The notes under the pieces are model-generated. The model had not been told where the DNA came from. It saw only the letters and a program-made list of their open reading frames with translations, and made no database searches. Both the position numbers and the translations under genes were made by a program. A DNA stretch of 43,759 nt from a virus. Taxonomy: Duplodnaviria > Caudoviricetes. The stretch spans positions 1 through 43,759 of IMG/VR virus record IMGVR_UViG_3300016263_000854; one strand, 5' to 3'. Of this stretch, positions 2,050 through 41,225 are shown in pieces; positions within the stretch are counted from its first letter, which is position 1; each line of letters opens with the position of its first letter.

Positions 2050-2367
2050 TCACGCCTCCAGGTCAACCGACTCCAGCGGGCGGTGGCGTTCACGGGTCTC
2101 AAAGAAGCCTGCGAGGTCTTCCGGGTTGCGTTCCATCAGCATCCGGGCGTAGTAGGCCGTGAAATTGTTGTTAAGCCTGAAGCTGCCAACGGGCTCGCTG
2201 GTGTTCAGAGCCAGCTCGTAACGCAGCACCTCCCAGAGGGCTTTGACACCCCAGCGCTCGACGCCGCGGTTGCGCAGCTTGAAGGCCAGACGCTCCAAAG
2301 CCGTGTAGACATGCGGGTTTTCGGCGTGGAAGCGGCGAAAGTCGGCGTCGAGACGCGGGGTTGGCAC
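2050..2367 (-). CDS. Conserved phage hypothetical protein
   Basis: FH.ENPHVY...LNNNFTAYYARMLM pattern resembles a common uncharacterised phage family (recalled, not searched). Confidence 0.7.
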   Translation of the reverse strand: MPTPRLDADFRRFHAENPHVYTALERLAFKLRNRGVERWGVKALWEVLRYELALNTSEPVGSFRLNNNFTAYYARMLMERNPEDLAGFFETRERHRPLESVDLEA

Positions 2368-2467
2368 GGCAGTATCAGAGCCAGTCTCAAAATACTTAGG
2401 TAATTACCTTGCCAAGTCAAGAGGTCCCTGCGACCCTCCCTAGGTTGTAATTCCTTGGGTAAGGCAC

Positions 2468-4807
2468 ATGCCGTCTGGCGGGTTCGGTCAGGAGTACGAC
2501 CACGAGCTAGAGCGCCTGAAAGACGCACACCGAGAAATTGGTAGCCGTATTCCGGCCGTGCACCTACCCCAGTTAGCCGGGCTGCCGATGAGTTGGCGGC
2601 TTTGCGGCACTGGCAACCGCGGGTCAGTGAAGGACTGCTTTGAGAGCCAGTGGAACTCTGACCCCGATAAGCGGTACACGGCACTGCAGCTTTTGCAGCG
2701 CAACGGGACCTTTGTGCAGCAGTGCATCGGGGCTGGTGTGCTGACGGGACCAGCGAGCCAGGGCCTGTTGGTGTTGGATTTTGACGAGCCCGAGGAGCAG
2801 GAGCTGGACGGCTTATCGGAGGAGACGTTCCAACAGGTGTTTGGGCGGCCTTCATCGGAGTTGCCGACAACAGCCACCAACACCAGCGGGAGACGGGGGC
2901 GGCGAAAGGTGTTTTTGCGGGTGCCTGAAGACTGGTGGCCGGAGCTGGGTAACTGGAGCTTTGACGCGGGCCCCTATGCCGAGGGAAAGAAGCACGCCTT
3001 TGAGGCGCTGTGGCTCAACGGGACCGGCACTGCCAAGCAGGCAGTGATTGCCGGGGATCACCCTATGTCTAGTGAGTCTCACCCGCTCTGTTACCACTGG
3101 GTGGACGGGCTGCACCCAGCAATGGTGGGTGTGGCCACCGCACCGGCATGGGTTTTAGGCGGCTTTATCCGTCAGGTGCAGCGGGGACTGGCCCCCAAGG
3201 CCGCGGCGACTGAGGACAGCTTCGATTCAAAGCGTGCGGCTGGTGAGCCGCAGCCCTGTGATCTGCTGCTGCCGAAAGATCAGCGGCGGCTGCTCCTGCT
3301 GATGCAACGGCATTGGCCATACCGAGGAGCACCTGCCGACAGTCCGTTTGCAGCGAGCTACCAGACGGCGTTTCGACCGCTAGTGGCTGGTCTCTTGAAC
3401 GTGCTGGGTAAGGACACGGCGTTGGCGTGGCTTGGCGGACAGGAGTGGGACCGCAAGAACGACTGGGATGACGGGAACTTGGGATCGTTTGAAGCGTTAA
3501 TGGAGTCGCTGAGCCGTAGTGCCACCGACGCCGATAGCAAGTGCGGGTGGGGCTCGATTGTCACTGCAGCATTGGCGGGTGGGTTTGTCTGGCCCAAGTG
3601 GGCGTTGCCCCCGAAGCAGATCGACATCGAGGATTTCACCACCAACGCAGCCAAGAAGGTTCAGAAGCTCAGAGAGGCCCTGGAGGTGATCGACGCCATG
3701 GAGTCACCAGTGGACCGTTTGGCGACTTACCAAGAGCTGACAAAACTTGTGGGGTGTAAGGACAGTGAGATGGCTCAACTGGTGCAAGTAATGGCTGAGG
3801 AGGACGCAGCGAACGGCTTTACCAGTGGAACCACAGAGGAGCTGCTGGCCGCGGCGACACCAATCAAGCCGTGCATCGAGCGTCTCTTGGCGAGCGGTGC
3901 CGTGACCTTGGTGGCGTCTGAGGGAGGTGTTGGCAAAAGCGTTTTGATCTACCGGCTTGCGGAGGCGGTCGCCAACGGGAGCAAGTTTGGGGGTCAGCTG
4001 CAGGCGGTAAAAGGAGGCGTTGTGGTGGTGCAGAAAGACGAGAGCGCCAGCAACGCCGCCCAGAAACTCCGGTTGATGGGGATGAAGCACCCACCCAAGT
4101 CGATTCGGTGGGAGTTTCAGTTCTCTGCTGCGATGTACCCGGAGCTGAAGAAGTGGATCCGGGAGATGGATGCACGTCTGGTGGTGATGGACTCGTTTGG
4201 ATCGCTGTTTGGTGGCGCTGGGGCCGGGATGGGCGAGGCGGAGGTGGGTTTGCACCTGTACCGGCTTAACCAGATCGCCAGCGAGATGGACTGCGCGATT
4301 GTCCTGACCCATCACCTACGCAAGCAGGGAAAGGAGAAGGGAGGGGAGCGGAAGGACGTGTTCTTGAGCGACCTGTTTGGCAGCAGCTACATCGTCAACG
4401 GAGCCAGCGACGTGTGGGGGGTGATCAAGGACACGGAGAGCACTGAGCCCAAGTTCAAGCTGAAGGTCCTTAAGCCAAGGACGGGCATCACCGAAGCGGG
4501 TGACACCTACGAGTTGTGGGGTAGCCGTGAGGACTTGTCTCTGACGCTGGCTTCCCATAACGGGGATGAGGAGGGTGTTGAGAAGCTGCGGGGTCAGGCG
4601 AGACAGGTGGTCGCTGCCTTAGAGGGCAGGACAGAGGAGACAGCGCTGGAGATCGGTGAGATTGCGGCTGCTGTGAACGCCCACCCCACGGCAGTGTCTC
4701 GGGTGGTGAAGCAGCTTGTGAGCACCGACCACCCGGGTCTCAAGCGAGTCCCAGTAGACGCAGGGAAGCGTGGGAGACCGTCGTATCGGTACTGGGTGGA
4801 GGTGTGA
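2468..4807 (+). CDS. Primase-polymerase / AAA (RepA-like) helicase fusion with C-terminal HTH
   Basis: N-terminal GVLTG...LLVLDFD...SGRRGRRKVF (prim-pol), Walker A ASEGGVGKS, Walker B LVVMDS, LTHHLRK, and a C-terminal IGEIAAAVNAHPTAVSRVVKQL HTH. Confidence 0.85.
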   Translation: MPSGGFGQEYDHELERLKDAHREIGSRIPAVHLPQLAGLPMSWRLCGTGNRGSVKDCFESQWNSDPDKRYTALQLLQRNGTFVQQCIGAGVLTGPASQGLLVLDFDEPEEQELDGLSEETFQQVFGRPSSELPTTATNTSGRRGRRKVFLRVPEDWWPELGNWSFDAGPYAEGKKHAFEALWLNGTGTAKQAVIAGDHPMSSESHPLCYHWVDGLHPAMVGVATAPAWVLGGFIRQVQRGLAPKAAATEDSFDSKRAAGEPQPCDLLLPKDQRRLLLLMQRHWPYRGAPADSPFAASYQTAFRPLVAGLLNVLGKDTALAWLGGQEWDRKNDWDDGNLGSFEALMESLSRSATDADSKCGWGSIVTAALAGGFVWPKWALPPKQIDIEDFTTNAAKKVQKLREALEVIDAMESPVDRLATYQELTKLVGCKDSEMAQLVQVMAEEDAANGFTSGTTEELLAAATPIKPCIERLLASGAVTLVASEGGVGKSVLIYRLAEAVANGSKFGGQLQAVKGGVVVVQKDESASNAAQKLRLMGMKHPPKSIRWEFQFSAAMYPELKKWIREMDARLVVMDSFGSLFGGAGAGMGEAEVGLHLYRLNQIASEMDCAIVLTHHLRKQGKEKGGERKDVFLSDLFGSSYIVNGASDVWGVIKDTESTEPKFKLKVLKPRTGITEAGDTYELWGSREDLSLTLASHNGDEEGVEKLRGQARQVVAALEGRTEETALEIGEIAAAVNAHPTAVSRVVKQLVSTDHPGLKRVPVDAGKRGRPSYRYWVEV

Positions 4808-4827
4808 GGGGGGTGTGGGTAGAGCGG

Positions 4828-5036
4828 TTGATTAATTGATTAAATGCTCTGAGGGGCTGAGATCCCAGTCAGGGACAGGGTTTATTTAATCAACCGGGGG
4901 TCGGTTGATTTATTCAGGGGGTATTTAATCAACCGAGGGCTGGTTGAAAAAATCAGCCCAGTCGTACCAAGGGGTCTGGGTATTTAATCAATTAATCAAT
5001 CAAAATCCCCCCACCCCCTCGGGAGGTTGATTAATT
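4828..5036. promoter_or_regulatory. Putative replication origin (AT-rich iterons and inverted repeats)
   Basis: Perfect 18-bp inverted repeat TTGATTAATTGATTAAAT (4828-4845) / ATTTAATCAATTAATCAA (4982-4999). Direct repeat TATTTAATCAACCG at 4883 and 4922. Lies immediately downstream of the primase-helicase. Confidence 0.7.
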
Positions 5037-5148
5037 CCCACCTCCAGTAGTGCGTCTCACGAGTCCAAGCGACTCAGTGATGCAGCTCCCCTACCTGAGT
5101 GACGGCTGCACCCCACAGTGCTATGACTTACGTAGTTACGTAAGTGAC

Positions 5149-10399: not shown

Positions 10400-10441
10400 C
10401 ACTGAAAAGGGGTAGGGGGTTGGGGTAACGGGGTTGAGTGA

Positions 10442-11113
10442 TCAGACGGGGCGGAGAATCAGATAATCAGCACCAGCTCCGGGGTTGGGTTCTGCGGTGT
10501 AGCCGTCACCGATGCGAAGCTCGCGCCATGCACGCTCCCAATCCAGACAATTAAGGGGCCATTGCAGATCGTCTGGCACCATGCCGCAATCGACGGCAAA
10601 CTCCTCACACCATGCGGCGCCGGCTTGCTCCGGGTTCCATCCGTCAGCCTCACCAGCCAAACCGTCAGCGAGCGTGTCAGGCGTTAAACCGTGATCCTTA
10701 AACAGCTGCACAAGCTGAGCAGCAGTCTCCGGATCCTCCATTTCAAGGCCGCGCTCGCTCAGCGCTTCTGCCCAATCGTCAGCAAGCCAAAAGCCAAAGC
10801 ACGCACCATCACCCTCGTTTGAGCCGAAGTAGAAGCCTGCGGGAGCGTGCTCGCTCAGATAATCGCTCAGACCCTCTATGGCTTGCTGCGCTAGAGCATC
10901 ATCCCAATCGGACTCGCTGGCATCCTCACCGGCAAGCCTTACCAAAACGCTGGCAAGGTCCCGGCGATCAGCTGCAAACGGCTGGCCGCTGTAAGCGATC
11001 AAGTGCACTTGCTCAGCGGCTTGCCAAAAGCCGACCAGCAAATGCTCAGGCTTGAGCGTGTCAGTGCTGACGATCCAAGGGATCTCAGCGAGTTGGGAAG
11101 CGGTGTAACTCAT
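10442..11113 (-). CDS. Acidic protein with C-terminal ArdA-like antirestriction domain
   Basis: Very D/E-rich. EEFAVDCGMVPDDLQWPLNCLDWERAWRELRIGDGY resembles the ArdA C-terminus. The N-terminal part carries APAGFYFGSNEGDGACFGFW. Confidence 0.65.
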   Translation of the reverse strand: MSYTASQLAEIPWIVSTDTLKPEHLLVGFWQAAEQVHLIAYSGQPFAADRRDLASVLVRLAGEDASESDWDDALAQQAIEGLSDYLSEHAPAGFYFGSNEGDGACFGFWLADDWAEALSERGLEMEDPETAAQLVQLFKDHGLTPDTLADGLAGEADGWNPEQAGAAWCEEFAVDCGMVPDDLQWPLNCLDWERAWRELRIGDGYTAEPNPGAGADYLILRPV

Positions 11114-11151
11114 TGGAGGGAAGGGGTAGGGGTAACGGGGTTGGGTAGAAC

Positions 11152-11328
11152 TCAAACGAGGCGGTGGTTCAGCACCACACCACCGGGACCGATCAAGACT
11201 GCGTGGCCAAGAACGCGATCAAAAGCACGTTGAGCGGCTGCTAGCGATCTGTGCCGTGAGAGAAGCTGATCCTGCCTACCGATCGTGACGCTTTTGCGGA
11301 TGATCTGAAAGGGTAGAGGCTTGGCCAT
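11152..11328 (-). CDS. Small basic hypothetical protein (58 aa)
   Basis: Not in the track. MAKPLPFQIIRKS...VLNHRLV* fits exactly between two repeats. Confidence 0.65.
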   Translation of the reverse strand: MAKPLPFQIIRKSVTIGRQDQLLSRHRSLAAAQRAFDRVLGHAVLIGPGGVVLNHRLV

Positions 11329-11364
11329 AGCAGGTAGGGGGTAGGGGTAACGGGGTTGGGTTGA

Positions 11365-11496
11365 TCAGCGGCGAACCACACCGGCGGCCGCTTGCGTGAT
11401 CGGGCGAAGGATGGGGGAGCCGGGGGCCAGGGCATCTGCCCAGATCAGGGCAGCGCCAAACCAAACCACACCGGCAAGGGCAAGACGGGGGAACAC
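11365..11496 (-). CDS. Small membrane or secreted peptide (43 aa)
   Basis: Not in the track. MFPRLALAGVVWFGAALIWADALAP...RR* lies between two repeats. Confidence 0.55.
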   Translation of the reverse strand: MFPRLALAGVVWFGAALIWADALAPGSPILRPITQAAAGVVRR

Positions 11497-11593
11497 AGCA
11501 AAAGGGGTAGGGGTAACGGGTCACCCTTGCGGGCTTAACCCCATTGTGCCTTAAGTAAGTAAGGATGCACAACTGCAGCAGCCCTAAAAAGGT

Positions 11594-11603
11594 GGCAAAC
11601 TAG
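11594..11603 (+). promoter_or_regulatory. Late-gene motif GGCAAACTAG
   Basis: Member of the GG(C/A)AA..TAG family, 24 nt before terS. Confidence 0.65.
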
Positions 11604-11627
11604 ATCAGTGTTCCTTATGTACGTAAC

Positions 11628-11960
11628 GTGGCAGGGAGGCGAGCTAGCGGGGCCGAGATTGAGCGCCGGATCTGCCTCGCTGTAAAGATGCTCAGTGAGT
11701 GCGCAAGCGCTACCCGCGTTTGCCACACACTGACAGCAGAGACGGGGGTGGATGAGCGCACTGCCTGGCGCTACATCAGCGAGGCACGCAACAGGTTGGT
11801 GGAGATCTATCAGCAGGATCGAGATCAGTGCGTTGCCGGTGAACTGTTGAAGCTCGATCACATCGCAGACCGTGCAACAGCCACCGGCCAACTATCGGCG
11901 GCCGTTGGTGCAGTGGGCCTCAAACTGCGGGTGATAGGTGCCGACGCACCGCGGAACTAG
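11628..11960 (+). CDS. terS: Terminase small subunit (putative)
   Basis: N-terminal HTH plus helical oligomerisation region; upstream of terL and preceded by the late motif. Confidence 0.65.
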   Translation: MAGRRASGAEIERRICLAVKMLSECASATRVCHTLTAETGVDERTAWRYISEARNRLVEIYQQDRDQCVAGELLKLDHIADRATATGQLSAAVGAVGLKLRVIGADAPRN

Positions 11961-12415
11961 CACCAAGGCCGCTGGTGGTATGGGGCGGCTTTTAATCCGG
12001 GGATATGGGGTGAGGGGTAACGGGGGCAGGTTGCGCTGATCTCTCTCACATAACGCGACCCCCCGTCACCCCCGCAGTCCGGCCAAACCCGGACGGGGGC
12101 AGGGGGCCACGACATTACTTGCAGGGAGTAACGTCGCCACCCCTCCCACCCGGGGTAATCGCAGCCCTACCCCCTACCAAACGAGCGCAGGGGGAGCTGA
12201 CATACCCCGCGACTCCCTCATCGAACCACCTCAAACGGTACCCTTACGTAACATCTCCCTACCCCTAATCACCCTTACGTCACATCACCCAACCTCTAGC
12301 GCACCTACCCCCTATCCCCTACCCCCAGGTCTGGAGAAATGCTGAAGCACCTAAATAGGTAGGTAGGCTTGAGGTGCTCCGGGTGGAACGGGGCGCAGAG
12401 GACCAAGGGACACCG

Positions 12416-33185: not shown

Positions 33186-33506
33186 ATGGCCAATCTGATC
33201 AAGCTGAAACGATCAGCGGTTGCCGGCAAGGCGCCGGCGGTCGGTGATTTGGAATTGGGTGAGCTTGCGCTCAACACCTACGACGGCAAGCTCTACACCA
33301 AGAAAGACAACGGCACCGCCAGCATCGTTGAACTATCAGGTGGCGGCGGCGGTGGTGGTGGGCCGATTGCTGAAACCGCGCAGGTGATCAGTCAGAACAT
33401 CACCCTGAACACCGGCAGCAATGGATTGTCTGTTGGCCCGGTTGAGGTGGCAGCAACTTATGCAGTCACCGTTCCTGATAACGCTACCTGGATGGTGCTC
33501 TCCTAA
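33186..33506 (+). CDS. Fibre protein
   Basis: IKLKRSAVAGKAP...LELGELALNTYDGKLY; C-terminal GP...VTVP..ATW. Confidence 0.72.
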   Translation: MANLIKLKRSAVAGKAPAVGDLELGELALNTYDGKLYTKKDNGTASIVELSGGGGGGGGPIAETAQVISQNITLNTGSNGLSVGPVEVAATYAVTVPDNATWMVLS

Positions 33507-33976
33507 TGGCTTACGGATCTGTCAAGGTTGACTCAATTGTCACCAGCACCAAGACGGTCACGGTTGACAATTTGCTGAGCACCAGCGCTGTCGGCAGCAG
33601 CGTGCAGGCGTATGACGCTGACACGGCCAAGACCGATGTAGTGCAGAGCTTCACCGCAGCCCAGCGTGGAGCCGTGACCGCGCTCACCAGTGCCTCAACG
33701 GTGACCGCCGATTTTGCTGTCGCCAACAACTTCAGCCTCACCCTCGCTCATAACATCACCCTCGCCAACCCCAGCAACCTCACTGCAGGGCAAAGCGGTG
33801 TGATTGTGATCACGCAGGGCTCCGGCACCGCCTACACCGTGGCCTATGGCTCGGCGTGGAAGTTTTCAGGCGGGACGCCAACGATGAGCACGGCGCTAAG
33901 CAGCGTTTCAACGCTGGCTTACTACGTCGAAAGTGCAAGCCGCATCACTGCCCAACTGATCACGAGCGTCGCCTGA
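33506..33976 (+). CDS. Tail fibre protein
   Basis: VQAYDADTAK.DV.QSFTAAQRG...NNFSLTL...LANPSNL.AGQSG. Confidence 0.75.
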   Translation: MAYGSVKVDSIVTSTKTVTVDNLLSTSAVGSSVQAYDADTAKTDVVQSFTAAQRGAVTALTSASTVTADFAVANNFSLTLAHNITLANPSNLTAGQSGVIVITQGSGTAYTVAYGSAWKFSGGTPTMSTALSSVSTLAYYVESASRITAQLITSVA

Positions 33977-34119
33977 TGACCGTCCCCGGCTCCGCTAATC
34001 CCCTGCTGCTGAAGAGCGCAGGTTCATCGCAATATCTCGTGGAGAGATCATTGAGATTCTCCTCAAGTGACAGTGGTTTCGACTGCCGCAATAACAACAG
34101 CAAGGAGGAGATCCAATGA
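33976..34119 (+). pseudogene. Orphan N-terminal stub of a tail-fibre/receptor-binding protein (47 aa)
   Basis: MTVPGSANPLLL...YLVERSLRFSSSDS followed by unrelated residues and a stop. Its N-terminus resembles that of the next gene (MSIPGAAIPLLL). Confidence 0.6.
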
Positions 34120-35659
34120 GTATTCCAGGCGCAGCTATCCCTCTGCTATTGACAACCACACAAGTAGAGAATCTCGTTAAGTTATACCTCTGGGGCGGTG
34201 GCGGTGGCGGCTCAGGCGGTACTGGAGGTGGCGGTGGAGCAGTTTACGCGCAGGCTGTATTGTCACCGGGGCAGCTTTACAACATTACGGTAGGCGGCGG
34301 TGGCCAAACAATGGCACCAAATGCGGGGACAGGCGGCACAGTAAGTGGCGGCGGCGGATTAGCTGGAAATACAGGATATGGAGGCCAGGGTGGTGGATAT
34401 TCTGGGATTTTTGTTGGTGCTGCTGCTACTCAGAATGCGGCAATAGTAATTGCTGGTGGTGGCGGCGGCGGTGCATATGAAGGTGCCGCTGGTGGTGCTG
34501 GTGGAGGGACAACAGGTGCTTCCGGTGGTTCAGGCGCAGAGGCCGGAGGCGGCGGTGGAACTCAATCCACCGGTGGCACTTCTGCTCATAGCGGAGTAGG
34601 CACCGCCCTTAAAGGAGGCGACTGCGGCAGCTCGGGCGATGGCGGTGGTGGCGGTGGCGGTGGCGGTGGATACTGGGGCGGTGGAGCCGGTTCAGGAGCC
34701 AACCCCGGATCTGCCGGTGGCGGCGGATCAAGTTTTATCAGCACTTTTTACACGCTGACGGGCACGTCATATGCAGGAAGTGGGACAACTCCTGGCGATT
34801 CAGGAAGCAGCTTTAGAGGCTCATACGGAAATGGTGGATCTGGAGCGGCCGGAACGCAGGGCGTTGTAATTATTCGCTATTTAGGCTCCCCTCGTTACAC
34901 TGGCGGAACTATTACGCAGTCCGGCGGATATACAACGCACACATTTACGAGTAATGGCTTCTTAAATATTTCTAGTGTTTTGTTGCTACCATTTAAGGCA
35001 TCTGCTACTCTTGATTATTCGCCAACAAATAAAAGTGTAACCATGAACGGCACTGTGTCAATCACCAGTGCCCAAAGCAAATATTATGGCGCTAGCGCTT
35101 ACTTCTCAAATGGGAACTGGCTGTCTGTCGCCGCATCCAGCGACTTTTTGTTTGGCAGCGAAGATTTTACTATTGAGTTTTGGATTTATCCAACAACTAC
35201 TGCCTATGATGTATTTGGCCAATACAATGGCGCAAATGTAATAAATGGTATAGCAGTTGGAAATTCGTATGGCTTCTCACCTGCTGCCAATACCATCGCG
35301 TTTATGAATGATGGATCTGGCGGTATTGTGCAAAATTTTCCAGGCTCAAACGGCGTTGGCGGTCCTATGGTCGTAAATACATGGCAACACCTAGCGTTTG
35401 TACGCAACGGGACAACGTTTGCCATTTACCGAGATGGAAACCAGTTGATAACACAAACAGTTTCCAGCAGCAACAACAATGTTGGCTCAAGCACATTACC
35501 AATGGGAATAGGAAGACTTGCCGGTATTCTAAATAGACCGCTAACTGGCTATTTAAACGATCTTGCCATGTATAAGGGATTCGCAAAATATACGGCCTCC
35601 TTTACGCCTCCTGGGGCGCTGACATAAGCACTATGTACTCGTAGTGAACACGACTTCCG
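34072..35659 (+). repeat. Pair of AGTG-N4-CGACT-N-CCG sites flanking the fibre gene
   Basis: AGTGgtttCGACTgCCG at 34072-34088 and AGTGaacaCGACTtCCG at 35643-35659. Confidence 0.7.
34116..35627 (+). CDS. Gly-rich tail fibre / receptor-binding protein with C-terminal LamG/ConA-like domain
   Basis: Gly-rich domain, then DFTIEFWIY...WQHLAFVRNG...IYRDG...GYLNDL..YKG.AKY. Visibly AT-richer codons; own SD AAGGAGG. Confidence 0.85.
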   Translation: MSIPGAAIPLLLTTTQVENLVKLYLWGGGGGGSGGTGGGGGAVYAQAVLSPGQLYNITVGGGGQTMAPNAGTGGTVSGGGGLAGNTGYGGQGGGYSGIFVGAAATQNAAIVIAGGGGGGAYEGAAGGAGGGTTGASGGSGAEAGGGGGTQSTGGTSAHSGVGTALKGGDCGSSGDGGGGGGGGGGYWGGGAGSGANPGSAGGGGSSFISTFYTLTGTSYAGSGTTPGDSGSSFRGSYGNGGSGAAGTQGVVIIRYLGSPRYTGGTITQSGGYTTHTFTSNGFLNISSVLLLPFKASATLDYSPTNKSVTMNGTVSITSAQSKYYGASAYFSNGNWLSVAASSDFLFGSEDFTIEFWIYPTTTAYDVFGQYNGANVINGIAVGNSYGFSPAANTIAFMNDGSGGIVQNFPGSNGVGGPMVVNTWQHLAFVRNGTTFAIYRDGNQLITQTVSSSNNNVGSSTLPMGIGRLAGILNRPLTGYLNDLAMYKGFAKYTASFTPPGALT

Positions 35660-35695
35660 TGCCCGCAGGGCACATGTAACACCGCACCACCCGCC

Positions 35696-36193
35696 ATGCC
35701 TTATCTCCTGCAGGGGCGCCCCATCAGCCCCGACGTTGCCTTCACCGCTGCGGTGAACGGCGATCAAATCCAGTTCCCCGCCAACTGGATCCGCCTCGCC
35801 ACCGAAGACGAGAAAGAAGCCATCGGTCTGACGTTTGAGCCCGATGCGCCCCAGGCCGATCAACGCTTCTACTGGGGATATGACGCCGAGGGCAACCTGC
35901 TGCCCAAGGACCACGCCCAGCTGGTGGAGCAGTGGGTTGCCACCACCAAGGTGACCGCCGGTTCGCTGTTGGCACCCAGCGATTGGTACATCACCCGCCA
36001 GGCCGAAACCGGTGCCGCCGTTCCGCAGGACGTGTTGGAGCGCCGCGCTGAGATCCGCGCTTTCAGCAACAGCAAGGAGCAGGCGATCTTGGCGACCACT
36101 AGCACCGATGAGCTGGCGGCCTTTGTCACCAGCGCTGAGTACAGCCGCTGGGAGCCAGAGGCGTCGGCAGAAGAAGCAGCGCCGAGCGAGTAA
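35696..36193 (+). CDS. Tail fibre assembly-like protein
   Basis: QFPANWIRL, DQRFYWG and LL.PSDWY..R..E motifs; follows the fibre gene. Confidence 0.7.
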   Translation: MPYLLQGRPISPDVAFTAAVNGDQIQFPANWIRLATEDEKEAIGLTFEPDAPQADQRFYWGYDAEGNLLPKDHAQLVEQWVATTKVTAGSLLAPSDWYITRQAETGAAVPQDVLERRAEIRAFSNSKEQAILATTSTDELAAFVTSAEYSRWEPEASAEEAAPSE

Positions 36194-36454: not shown

Positions 36455-36464
36455 GGCAACTTAG
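36455..36464 (+). promoter_or_regulatory. Late-gene motif GGCAACTTAG
   Basis: 21 nt before the ATG at 36486. Confidence 0.75.
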
Positions 36465-40023: not shown

Positions 40024-40881
40024 CTAAACAAGGGGCATGGCGTAGGTGTTGGTGGTGCCGGCGTAGTGCTCCCAGCAGGTCTGCGGGGTGTTGCCGGCCC
40101 ACTTGGCCACCTGCGTCACAGGGATGCCTTGCTCCAGCAGAGAGCTGATGAAGGTGTGGCGAAGGTCGTAGGGCCGGTAGCGGTGTTTGATCACCCCCTT
40201 CTCACAAAGACGCCGCATAGCGCTGCGGAACGATGTTTGGTAGGTCTGGCGCTTCCAAGGGAACACAAAAGGCTCGTTATGCAGCTTTTGCATTTCCGTG
40301 AGAATGCCAAAGGCGATGTCGTTCAGAGGCACCCATCTCTCCTTACCGGTTTTGGTTCGGGCTTGGAGGCCGTGGGTCAGGGTCATGTTCTGGTGGATCC
40401 GGCAGCGCCGGTTCTCCCAGTCCACGTCTTGCCACTGAAGGCCGAACACCTCCGCCGTCCTCAAGCCAAGCTGCAGCTGGAAGTTGGCCACCAGATGCCA
40501 TTTGGACTCGTGAATTGAGGTCAGGCGGAGAGAGGCCATCACGTCGTCTTGGTGGGCCTTGGGGATGACGACCGGCTCCGGCTTTTGCTCCTCCCTAGGT
40601 AGACGGAAGGTGGCAACAGGGTTGCGGCTAACTAGCGCTACGTCCTCGCTAGCGGCCCACCGGAACAAGGTTTTGACGTACTGAGCCACCGCCTTGGCCG
40701 ACTTGGGCGGCTGTTGCTTGAGGATCCAGACCAGAGCAAGCCTGGCCTGCTCGGGGTCTTGGAACGGACATCGCTCTAGGTAATGCGTCACCTGCGTCCA
40801 GGTGGAGGTGGTGCTAGTCGGAGCAACAGAAAGGGAGCGCTCAGTCTTAAACGCTTCCCACAATTCAAGAAGGGTCATCAT
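40024..40881 (-). CDS. Tyrosine recombinase/integrase without an obvious arm-binding domain
   Basis: GLRTAE (R), TKTG (K), YDLRHT (R), AGN and HY (Y); only 285 aa. Confidence 0.92.
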   Translation of the reverse strand: MMTLLELWEAFKTERSLSVAPTSTTSTWTQVTHYLERCPFQDPEQARLALVWILKQQPPKSAKAVAQYVKTLFRWAASEDVALVSRNPVATFRLPREEQKPEPVVIPKAHQDDVMASLRLTSIHESKWHLVANFQLQLGLRTAEVFGLQWQDVDWENRRCRIHQNMTLTHGLQARTKTGKERWVPLNDIAFGILTEMQKLHNEPFVFPWKRQTYQTSFRSAMRRLCEKGVIKHRYRPYDLRHTFISSLLEQGIPVTQVAKWAGNTPQTCWEHYAGTTNTYAMPLV

Positions 40882-41083: not shown

Positions 41084-41225
41084 TAGGAGCTGCGGCTACG
41101 GTCGGACAGATGTTATGAAGCACTTACGTAAGGGTCAACCCCTTCCTAGCGCATCCAGCGAGTCTCGTGGGACTAAGACAAGACCTGCTTATAGGTCTCT
41201 TCCGCTAGTGCGCTTAAGCCCAGCT

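Follow-up and report, generated by a model that had tools for sequence, protein, structure and literature searches.

Putative recombination sites at the switch points of a fibre-gene cassette in a phage genome from a lake

Integrons are built from IntI, attI and attC, and their cassettes end in attC hairpins. Recombinase-mediated cassette exchange (RMCE) is obtained with the Int protein of HK022 and two incompatible site pairs; in its attB, as described in the relevant part of PMC7736782, the sequence of the 7-bp overlap is free as long as both partners share it, and the arms are reducible to 5 bp. In the Rin shufflon of Bifidobacterium prophages (excerpts of PMC6109161), the variable body of the receptor-binding gene is set off from its constant N-terminus by a site within the gene, another site lies past the 3' end and the recombinase is an arm-less tyrosine recombinase; the system comprises repeated identical 11-bp rix sites and silent variable genes, with inversion in one genome beside rin. 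In T4-type phages, modules are shuffled with PeSLs, i.e. short recurrent elements at gene borders which consist of repeated promoter plus stem-loop units (excerpts of PMC2839356). For the Synechococcus phage S-LBS1, an integrase was interpreted by its authors in terms of lysogeny, with mitomycin C induction and no evidence of integration; the excerpted passages of PMC6157547 contain no mention of the sites described below. In a full-text search of the literature, made on main texts with few subscription papers among them, no description of this site family was found.

Here, these systems are compared with the fibre locus of a virus from a lake, which likely has a cyanobacterial host, by inference Synechococcus/Cyanobium. 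The window, i.e. the whole stretch of DNA analysed, is a complete phage record of 43,759 bp with direct terminal repeats at its ends; its gene products include terminase, capsid, lysin, an RpoD-like sigma factor and a tyrosine recombinase. The sequencing run that covers it best is a freshwater metagenome, which may be its source, and no RNA run is among those listed as containing it. As in HK022 Int RMCE, two apparently incompatible sites with a 7-bp overlap and short palindromic arms flank a cassette. The HK022 system, as presented in the sections of PMC7736782 considered here, is engineered, whereas the present sites are natural, fall into at least 10 core classes and lie in several cases inside coding sequence. 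The geometry agrees with that of attB. In view of the stub, four-gamete and filled/empty results given below we favour a site-specific reading, in which the two sites, termed A and B, are probably incompatible sites of the tyrosine-recombinase type at which cassettes are swapped between phage genomes.

The fibre-gene cassette and site A

The locus lies between two plus-strand genes that are not part of the cassette, an upstream adaptor-like gene (33506..33976; phrog_4757), homologues of which precede LamG-type fibre genes in many loci, and a conserved downstream gene (35696..36193) which by its position may be fibre-assembly-like. Relatives were drawn from searches with these two genes, the 80 best of 89 loci being used for the downstream one and the 80 best of 518 for the upstream one. 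In most of them, an intact gene of the LamG/SPRY type, about 800 aa long, begins like the stub of the window and runs on past SLRFNxxDS; P-SS2, SS120-1 and S-CRES3 have homologues with an annotation as fibre or virion structural protein, and a receptor-binding role of these fibre genes is presumed.

In the window, a stub ORF of 47 aa (33976..34119, plus strand) carries, as far as site A, the constant N-terminal part of the LamG/SPRY fibre gene and then a 14-aa tail which is the translated leader of the cassette; its stop codon overlaps the next start (ATGA). This next gene, the cassette gene (34116..35627, plus strand; 503 aa), is preceded by the Shine–Dalgarno-like sequence GGAGGAG (34104..34110, plus strand), has an N-terminus homologous to that of the stub as well as a homologue in L306, and encodes a Gly-rich predicted fibre protein or adhesin with a ConA/LamG domain (PF13385 at residues 341-487, E 8e-15) and matches to virion-structural PHROGs. 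Its GC3 is 0.40, versus 0.63-0.80 in nine other late-gene ORFs. The arrangement of a stub and a self-contained fibre gene with its own ribosome-binding site, which the preliminary description had put forward, thus stands in all these points. A single-sequence fold of the cassette C-terminus (pLDDT 34) was unusable. Weak matches to the arm pattern are seen at both ends of the cassette gene (34165-34179 and 35622-35644).

Site A (34061..34083, plus strand) reads CCTCAAGT / GACAGTG / GTTTCGAC, with the core at 34069-34075 and arms that are degenerate in the window copy. A 7-bp core between inverted arms had been proposed before for either end of the cassette; this anatomy is retained here, but the register of site 1 had to be shifted, because what was taken for its left arm, AGTG, is the end of the conserved core. 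The arm score alone does not separate the two registers (rank 269 of 43,729 positions in the window, versus rank 352 for the earlier register), and since the bare pattern AGT-N7-ACT occurs six times in the window it is not significant by itself, so that the case rests on relatives. The 14-mer in the earlier register was rejected; it matched 121 viral sequences, none of them in a fibre N-terminus. The longer motif AGTG-N4-CGACT-N-CCG does occur, as reported, at 34072 and 35643, and nowhere else in the window; the extended CGACT-N-CCG likeness of the two sites was not borne out, CCG being present in one of 42 site-B contexts, the window itself.

Alignment of relatives confirmed the AGTG that follows SLRF..DS as the point of change between different fibre genes, and judged from such alignments this switch-point feature is real and widespread among relatives. 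In run X6, which belongs to another study, a lake contig of depth 4 agrees with 33972-34075 in all but two of 104 nt (98%) and, right after base 34075, continues as the intact fibre allele CCTACTTG, a switch seen in this one contig over the 20 nt that follow it. In L014, an independent phage family, the stub is broken at the same codon and another Gly-rich gene follows; L014 is near-identical to the intact-gene relatives L031, L035 and L071 up to GACAGTGCCTAC and unrelated beyond, the departure lying five bases past the GACAGTG core.

Short proteins searched with a profile yielded 446 matches, and the 120 listed ones examined comprised 26 stubs, 93 canonical continuations and one unparsed protein. 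Among these 120, the S-D-S allele is present in all 26 stubs versus 23 of the 93 canonical proteins (p 5e-13); nine of the 12 rows of the query alignment are S-D-S, and still 70 of the 93 non-stubs carry other alleles. Divergence sets in at most two codons past DS in every one of these 26 stubs. Asp at the first position past the core, which is found in nine of the 26 and in none of 47 DNA contexts from intact or stub loci, argues for a break at the core edge, and the first two tail residues, A/D/G followed by Y/F/L in 26 of 26, fit a retained right arm. Glu at position -4 of the tail (25 of 26) would be expected from the GAG of a Shine–Dalgarno sequence at fixed distance. About five tail families can be told apart, attached to 26 different N-termini, and the stubs may have fewer than 26 independent origins; as DNA scans for more stubs gave the L014-type phage family only, plus noise, most stubs are known just as proteins. 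From the X6 switch after 34075 and the stub breakpoints, the conserved unit of site A is AGT/GACAGTG/nYT, 6 nt to the left of the earlier register.

The Ser codon of the site is AGT in 17 of 17 site-A genes and in 16% elsewhere. The site-free allele, however, is just as frozen in its spelling (TCG in 25 of 29), which speaks for a reading without a dedicated enzyme: homologous or microhomology recombination at frozen joints, with conserved coding blocks of 30-80 bp and a conserved gene-end motif as handles, where the stubs would go back to a single old insertion or a few of them and would have been spread by ordinary recombination. We regard this explanation as the main rival and a serious one, though on the unlikely side. 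It does not account for the restriction of stubs to the site allele, nor for DNA arms that stay constant while the amino acids vary (V/L, T/S/P).

Site B and the relation between the two sites

Site B (35638..35660, plus strand) reads CTCGTAGT / GAACACG / ACTTCCGT, with the core at 35646-35652, and has the second-best arm score of 43,729 positions in the window, its class having been in the training set. In relatives the site, with the pattern TAG[TAG]GAACA[AC]G, occurs once per locus, after intact fibre genes and small cargo genes, and in fibre contexts always on the coding strand. Of 17 matches in an unbiased 17-mer scan, 10 were directly 5' of the conserved downstream gene and seven unrelated. 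Identity between relatives resumes at this site, as expected from the preliminary description, and B accompanies A: it is found in 20 of 24 genes with A versus seven of 36 without.

The flanks of site B reassort almost freely; nine left types (10 bases) and 18 right types (12 bases) form 31 combinations and 15 complete four-gamete quartets around an 11-bp core, arguing for repeated crossovers within about 11 bp. Together with the switch at site A, these quartets correspond to the shared core with reassorting flanks of RMCE, single-base variants occurring. Sharp breakpoints between related loci lie at most 12 nt from a core edge in 45 of 595 cases, versus 9.7 +/- 3.1 in shifted controls (maximum 19 in 500 shifted sets), and eight of the 595 fall exactly on the first base of core B; the counts are pairwise and not phylogenetically independent, and the other 550 breakpoints are found at other places of the 16-kb loci. 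In L306, the Gly-rich gene is separated from site B by a small gene and by what is left of the old fibre C-terminus, and L014 is similar; in both, the Gly-rich module ends more than 100 nt 5' of site B. Other recombination thus also builds cassettes, and such 3' junctions upstream of B are in line with exchange through frozen joints, which on the other hand leaves the reassortment of flanks at a non-coding 11-bp core unexplained.

Of the two hairpins pointed out earlier at this site, one covers its left arm (35629..35646, plus strand; -3.4 kcal/mol) and a GC-rich one lies 3' of it (35659..35673, plus strand). Both fold in the window, but they are not conserved in the 42 contexts. Eight other contexts pair the arm, none stronger than -0.8, a stable arm-pairing hairpin being found in one of 42 contexts, the window; 3' stems of -4 kcal/mol or stronger are present in seven of 42.

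These data bear on the original proposal that the two sites recombine with each other, by integron-like hairpin excision or shufflon-like inversion, via the gene at 40024-40881. Recombinase homologues inside fibre loci of several backgrounds and one filled/empty pair at another core class would suit it. However, the cores differ at four of seven positions, the two sites seem not to be partners for excision or inversion, the hairpins are not conserved, a single, always coding-strand site B is present per locus in fibre contexts, the enzyme is not IntI and the loci of its closest orthologues are without site B. Moreover, no joints at A or B were found in contigs of four runs (X1, X2, X6, X7), assembled contigs in which rare variants are not visible, the joints listed in them belonging to Gly-rich repeats or other organisms. 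We therefore consider recombination of site A with site B very improbable. By the features tested, the locus is neither an integron nor a shufflon, the hairpins not being conserved and neither inversion nor excision being observed in the assembled contigs.

With integrons it shares a gene cassette with its own ribosome-binding site and the one filled/empty pair at a related site; unlike integrons, it has no conserved attC-type hairpin, no IntI (27.5 bits for the window recombinase against profile TIGR02249, cut-off 265) and no cassette array, only a single gene lying between A and B. Unlike Rin, with which it has the in-gene site, the site past the 3' end and an arm-less recombinase in common, it shows differing cores, no silent array and, in the assembled contigs, no inversion, and exchange would be intergenomic; repeated identical or inverted sites with silent genes are absent from the window, where core A and core B are each present in a single motif-flanked copy. 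PeSLs are similar as short recurrent elements at gene borders with shuffled modules, but the sites here have no conserved stem-loop, are non-identical within a genome and also occur inside genes, and a promoter plus stem-loop unit repeated in the genome was not found.

LexA-box, NtcA-box and -35 readings of site B, made by eye against consensus sequences, were rejected for inconsistent spacing. The possibility that site B is where the reading frame of a small gene ends (LVVNKT/PLENKT) was also rejected, because the sequence varies at second codon positions and is present without that gene as well. In two loci without site B, endonuclease-like genes (by eye) are inserted at the fibre 3' end, with the fibre C-terminus duplicated (L002:7429-7962, L037:52-594).

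A family of sites with 7-bp cores

A and B are members of a TAG-N-(7 bp)-N-CT[A/T] family with cores that are nearly fixed per class, which is concentrated in fibre loci of several Synechococcus-type phages. Comparison between loci shows the switch points, the shared arm pattern, the near-fixed cores and the reassortment of flanks. TAGT-N7-[AC]CT[AT] was found in 201 distinct contexts in 172 loci versus 81-145 at other spacings, and this 7-bp-specific excess corresponds to the inverted arms around an asymmetric core of 6-8 bp of RMCE and tyrosine-recombinase sites; 121 unrelated control loci gave no excess, with 21 contexts at 7-bp spacing versus 27-46 at others. Recurrent cores include GACAGTG, GAACAAG, CACAAAG, GAAGGAC, CGTTCCC, CTCCATC, CGGGTAC, CATTCCA, CCTGATC and CCCCTTC, with single-base variants such as GAACAAG/GAACACG and CACAAAG/CACGAAG. 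The 17 site-A fibre genes hold 85 further matches at 7-bp spacing versus 13-30 at others, and 29 fibre genes with other alleles hold 53 versus 17-51.

Among isolates, S-H1 (nine matches versus a mean of 2.6) and S-LBS1 (six versus 1.9) show an excess. In 30.9 kb of S-LBS1, the five best arm scores all lie within or just 3' of the fibre gene, and four of them belong to classes outside the training set. S-CBP1 and S-CBP4 have no overall excess and share TAGT-CCTACTC-ACTA directly 3' of a fibre-type gene. No clear excess was seen in S-EIV1, S-CRES3, two Prochlorococcus phages and three non-cyanobacterial phages. In L295, the core CCCCTTC occurs twice, 1,050 bp apart, and L296 has the corresponding empty site; this is the one empty counterpart among 18 listed direct duplicates. 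On the reverse strand of L295, a block at 2170-3830 consists of small cargo genes interspersed with at least six sites, with two cores duplicated, and ends in a recombinase remnant.

Homologous recombination clearly operates within these fibre genes. Recurrent sites are located where identity rises and falls, and identity switches near sites within genes (25 of 146 versus a control of 13 +/- 12; p 0.20) are not significantly enriched. This lack of enrichment, as well as long frozen DNA blocks of which just three of 43 contain the complete motif, would be expected if homology at frozen joints were sufficient. What this explanation does not provide is a reason for a single arm pattern and spacing at unrelated joints, coding and non-coding, in two unrelated fibre families.

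The palindromic arms would also suit a regulatory site, such as an operator, that is recognised by a dimeric protein and retained for its role in expression, nearby exchanges being secondary. Site B does lie just 5' of a conserved gene, and by eye a TAnnnT-like hexamer follows it in some cases at a distance of 16-17 nt. Yet the majority of motif copies sit within fibre coding sequence, cores are fixed per class, the best scores of S-LBS1 are confined to fibre loci, and 31 host-family chromosomes show neither excess nor deficit (7008/6707/6594 at gaps 9/6/12), all of which makes a regulatory origin of the motif hardly credible.

Proposed exchange and the candidate recombinase

In the site-specific reading, strand exchange at the core edges would be enzymatic and would require matching cores; A would then pair with A and B with B, and no deletion or inversion would arise inside one genome. 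A double crossover, A x A and B x B, between co-infecting genomes would replace the fibre body, and an incoming cassette with its own start would leave the old N-terminus as a translationally coupled stub. The weakest step is the enzyme, which would be supplied in trans, by the arm-less 285-aa family or by another host or phage enzyme; an effect on host range would be a presumed consequence. More tentatively, and with somewhat less than even confidence, we suggest that Synechococcus/Cyanobium phages of different morphotypes share a natural standard for cassette exchange, with at least 12 orthogonal sites with 7-bp cores, located within and around fibre genes, and one tyrosine recombinase supplied in trans, through which entire fibre genes, single receptor-binding domains and small cargo genes would be traded like standard parts.

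If true, the proposed exchange would account for the hypervariability of fibre loci in lake cyanophages, which nevertheless keep their reading frame in genomes that are unrelated otherwise. It would be the counterpart in nature of engineered cassette exchange and a shared way to change host range, and would give a new, testable role to the S-LBS1-type 'integrase', for which integration was not found. As a genetic tool, a recombinase that combines short arms with many orthogonal cores would be useful, too. With S-LBS1, S-H1, S-CBP1 and S-CBP4 as site-bearing cultured phages, the idea is directly testable.

The window encodes a 285-aa tyrosine recombinase without an arm-binding domain (40024..40881, minus strand; PF00589), XerA/XerD-like by sequence, 4.4 kb from the fibre locus. 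The preliminary description was correct in its assignment; the suggested tie to the sites looks doubtful, since the loci of the four closest orthologues (86-94%), which lie beside a sigma gene as in the window, have no site B and wholly different fibre blocks, with no motif excess in L293 and L294, and complete site-bearing phages exist without any PF00589 gene (no match in G028, G031, S-H1 and S-CBP4). R141, K177, R241 and Y273 are invariant in seven homologues; Tyr and Asn stand at positions where His residues are usual. Among 50,697 phage records, the sole match at E<1e-15 is the S-LBS1 integrase ATS93184 (45% identical), encoded about 80 bp past a site which follows the site-rich fibre gene.

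Homologues (42-52%) lie within fibre loci of the L014, L031, L039 and L297 families and of S-LBS1; in the L014 and L031 families the stop codon of the homologue coincides with the right arm of site B, and L295 retains a C-terminal remnant alone, directly 3' of a site. Such positions fit an enzyme next to its own sites, or a cargo gene. The family is absent from most records, being found in five of 50 (four of 22 site-bearing versus one of 28 site-free; p 0.16), and the lack of a recombinase in most site-bearing genomes is a point for recombination at frozen joints. A recombinase nearby in cis is not required. Judged by co-location and co-occurrence, the arm-less 285-aa family is the leading candidate for the enzyme acting on sites A and B, an assignment we nevertheless hold to be doubtful.

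A search of species genomes for a host-encoded homologue of the recombinase gave one close match, on a phage-like MAG contig. L330, a phage-like contig in a Synechococcus MAG, carries both a large serine-recombinase-like ORF (by eye) and the arm-less tyrosine recombinase near the sigma gene (86-1381 and 1966-2823). A TAGG-AGCTGCG-GCTA match is located at the start of a 72-aa gene upstream of the window recombinase (41084-41098), with a comparable match just 5' of the S-LBS1 integrase, and may reflect autoregulation or chance.

Elsewhere in the window, AT-rich nested inverted and tandem repeats directly 3' of the primase-helicase gene (4809-5018) are possibly an origin, with a high-scoring arm-pattern match nearby at 5052, and five copies of a GGGGTAACGGGG repeat occupy a region upstream of terminase without long ORFs (10404-12033). 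The motif GG[CA]AA[CA][CT]TAG, likely a late promoter, has eight plus-strand copies (11594, 16649, 19759, 21214, 28374, 32651, 33141 and 36455), mostly a short way 5' of late genes, and the copy at 36455 is the point where synteny with L294 and L295 resumes.
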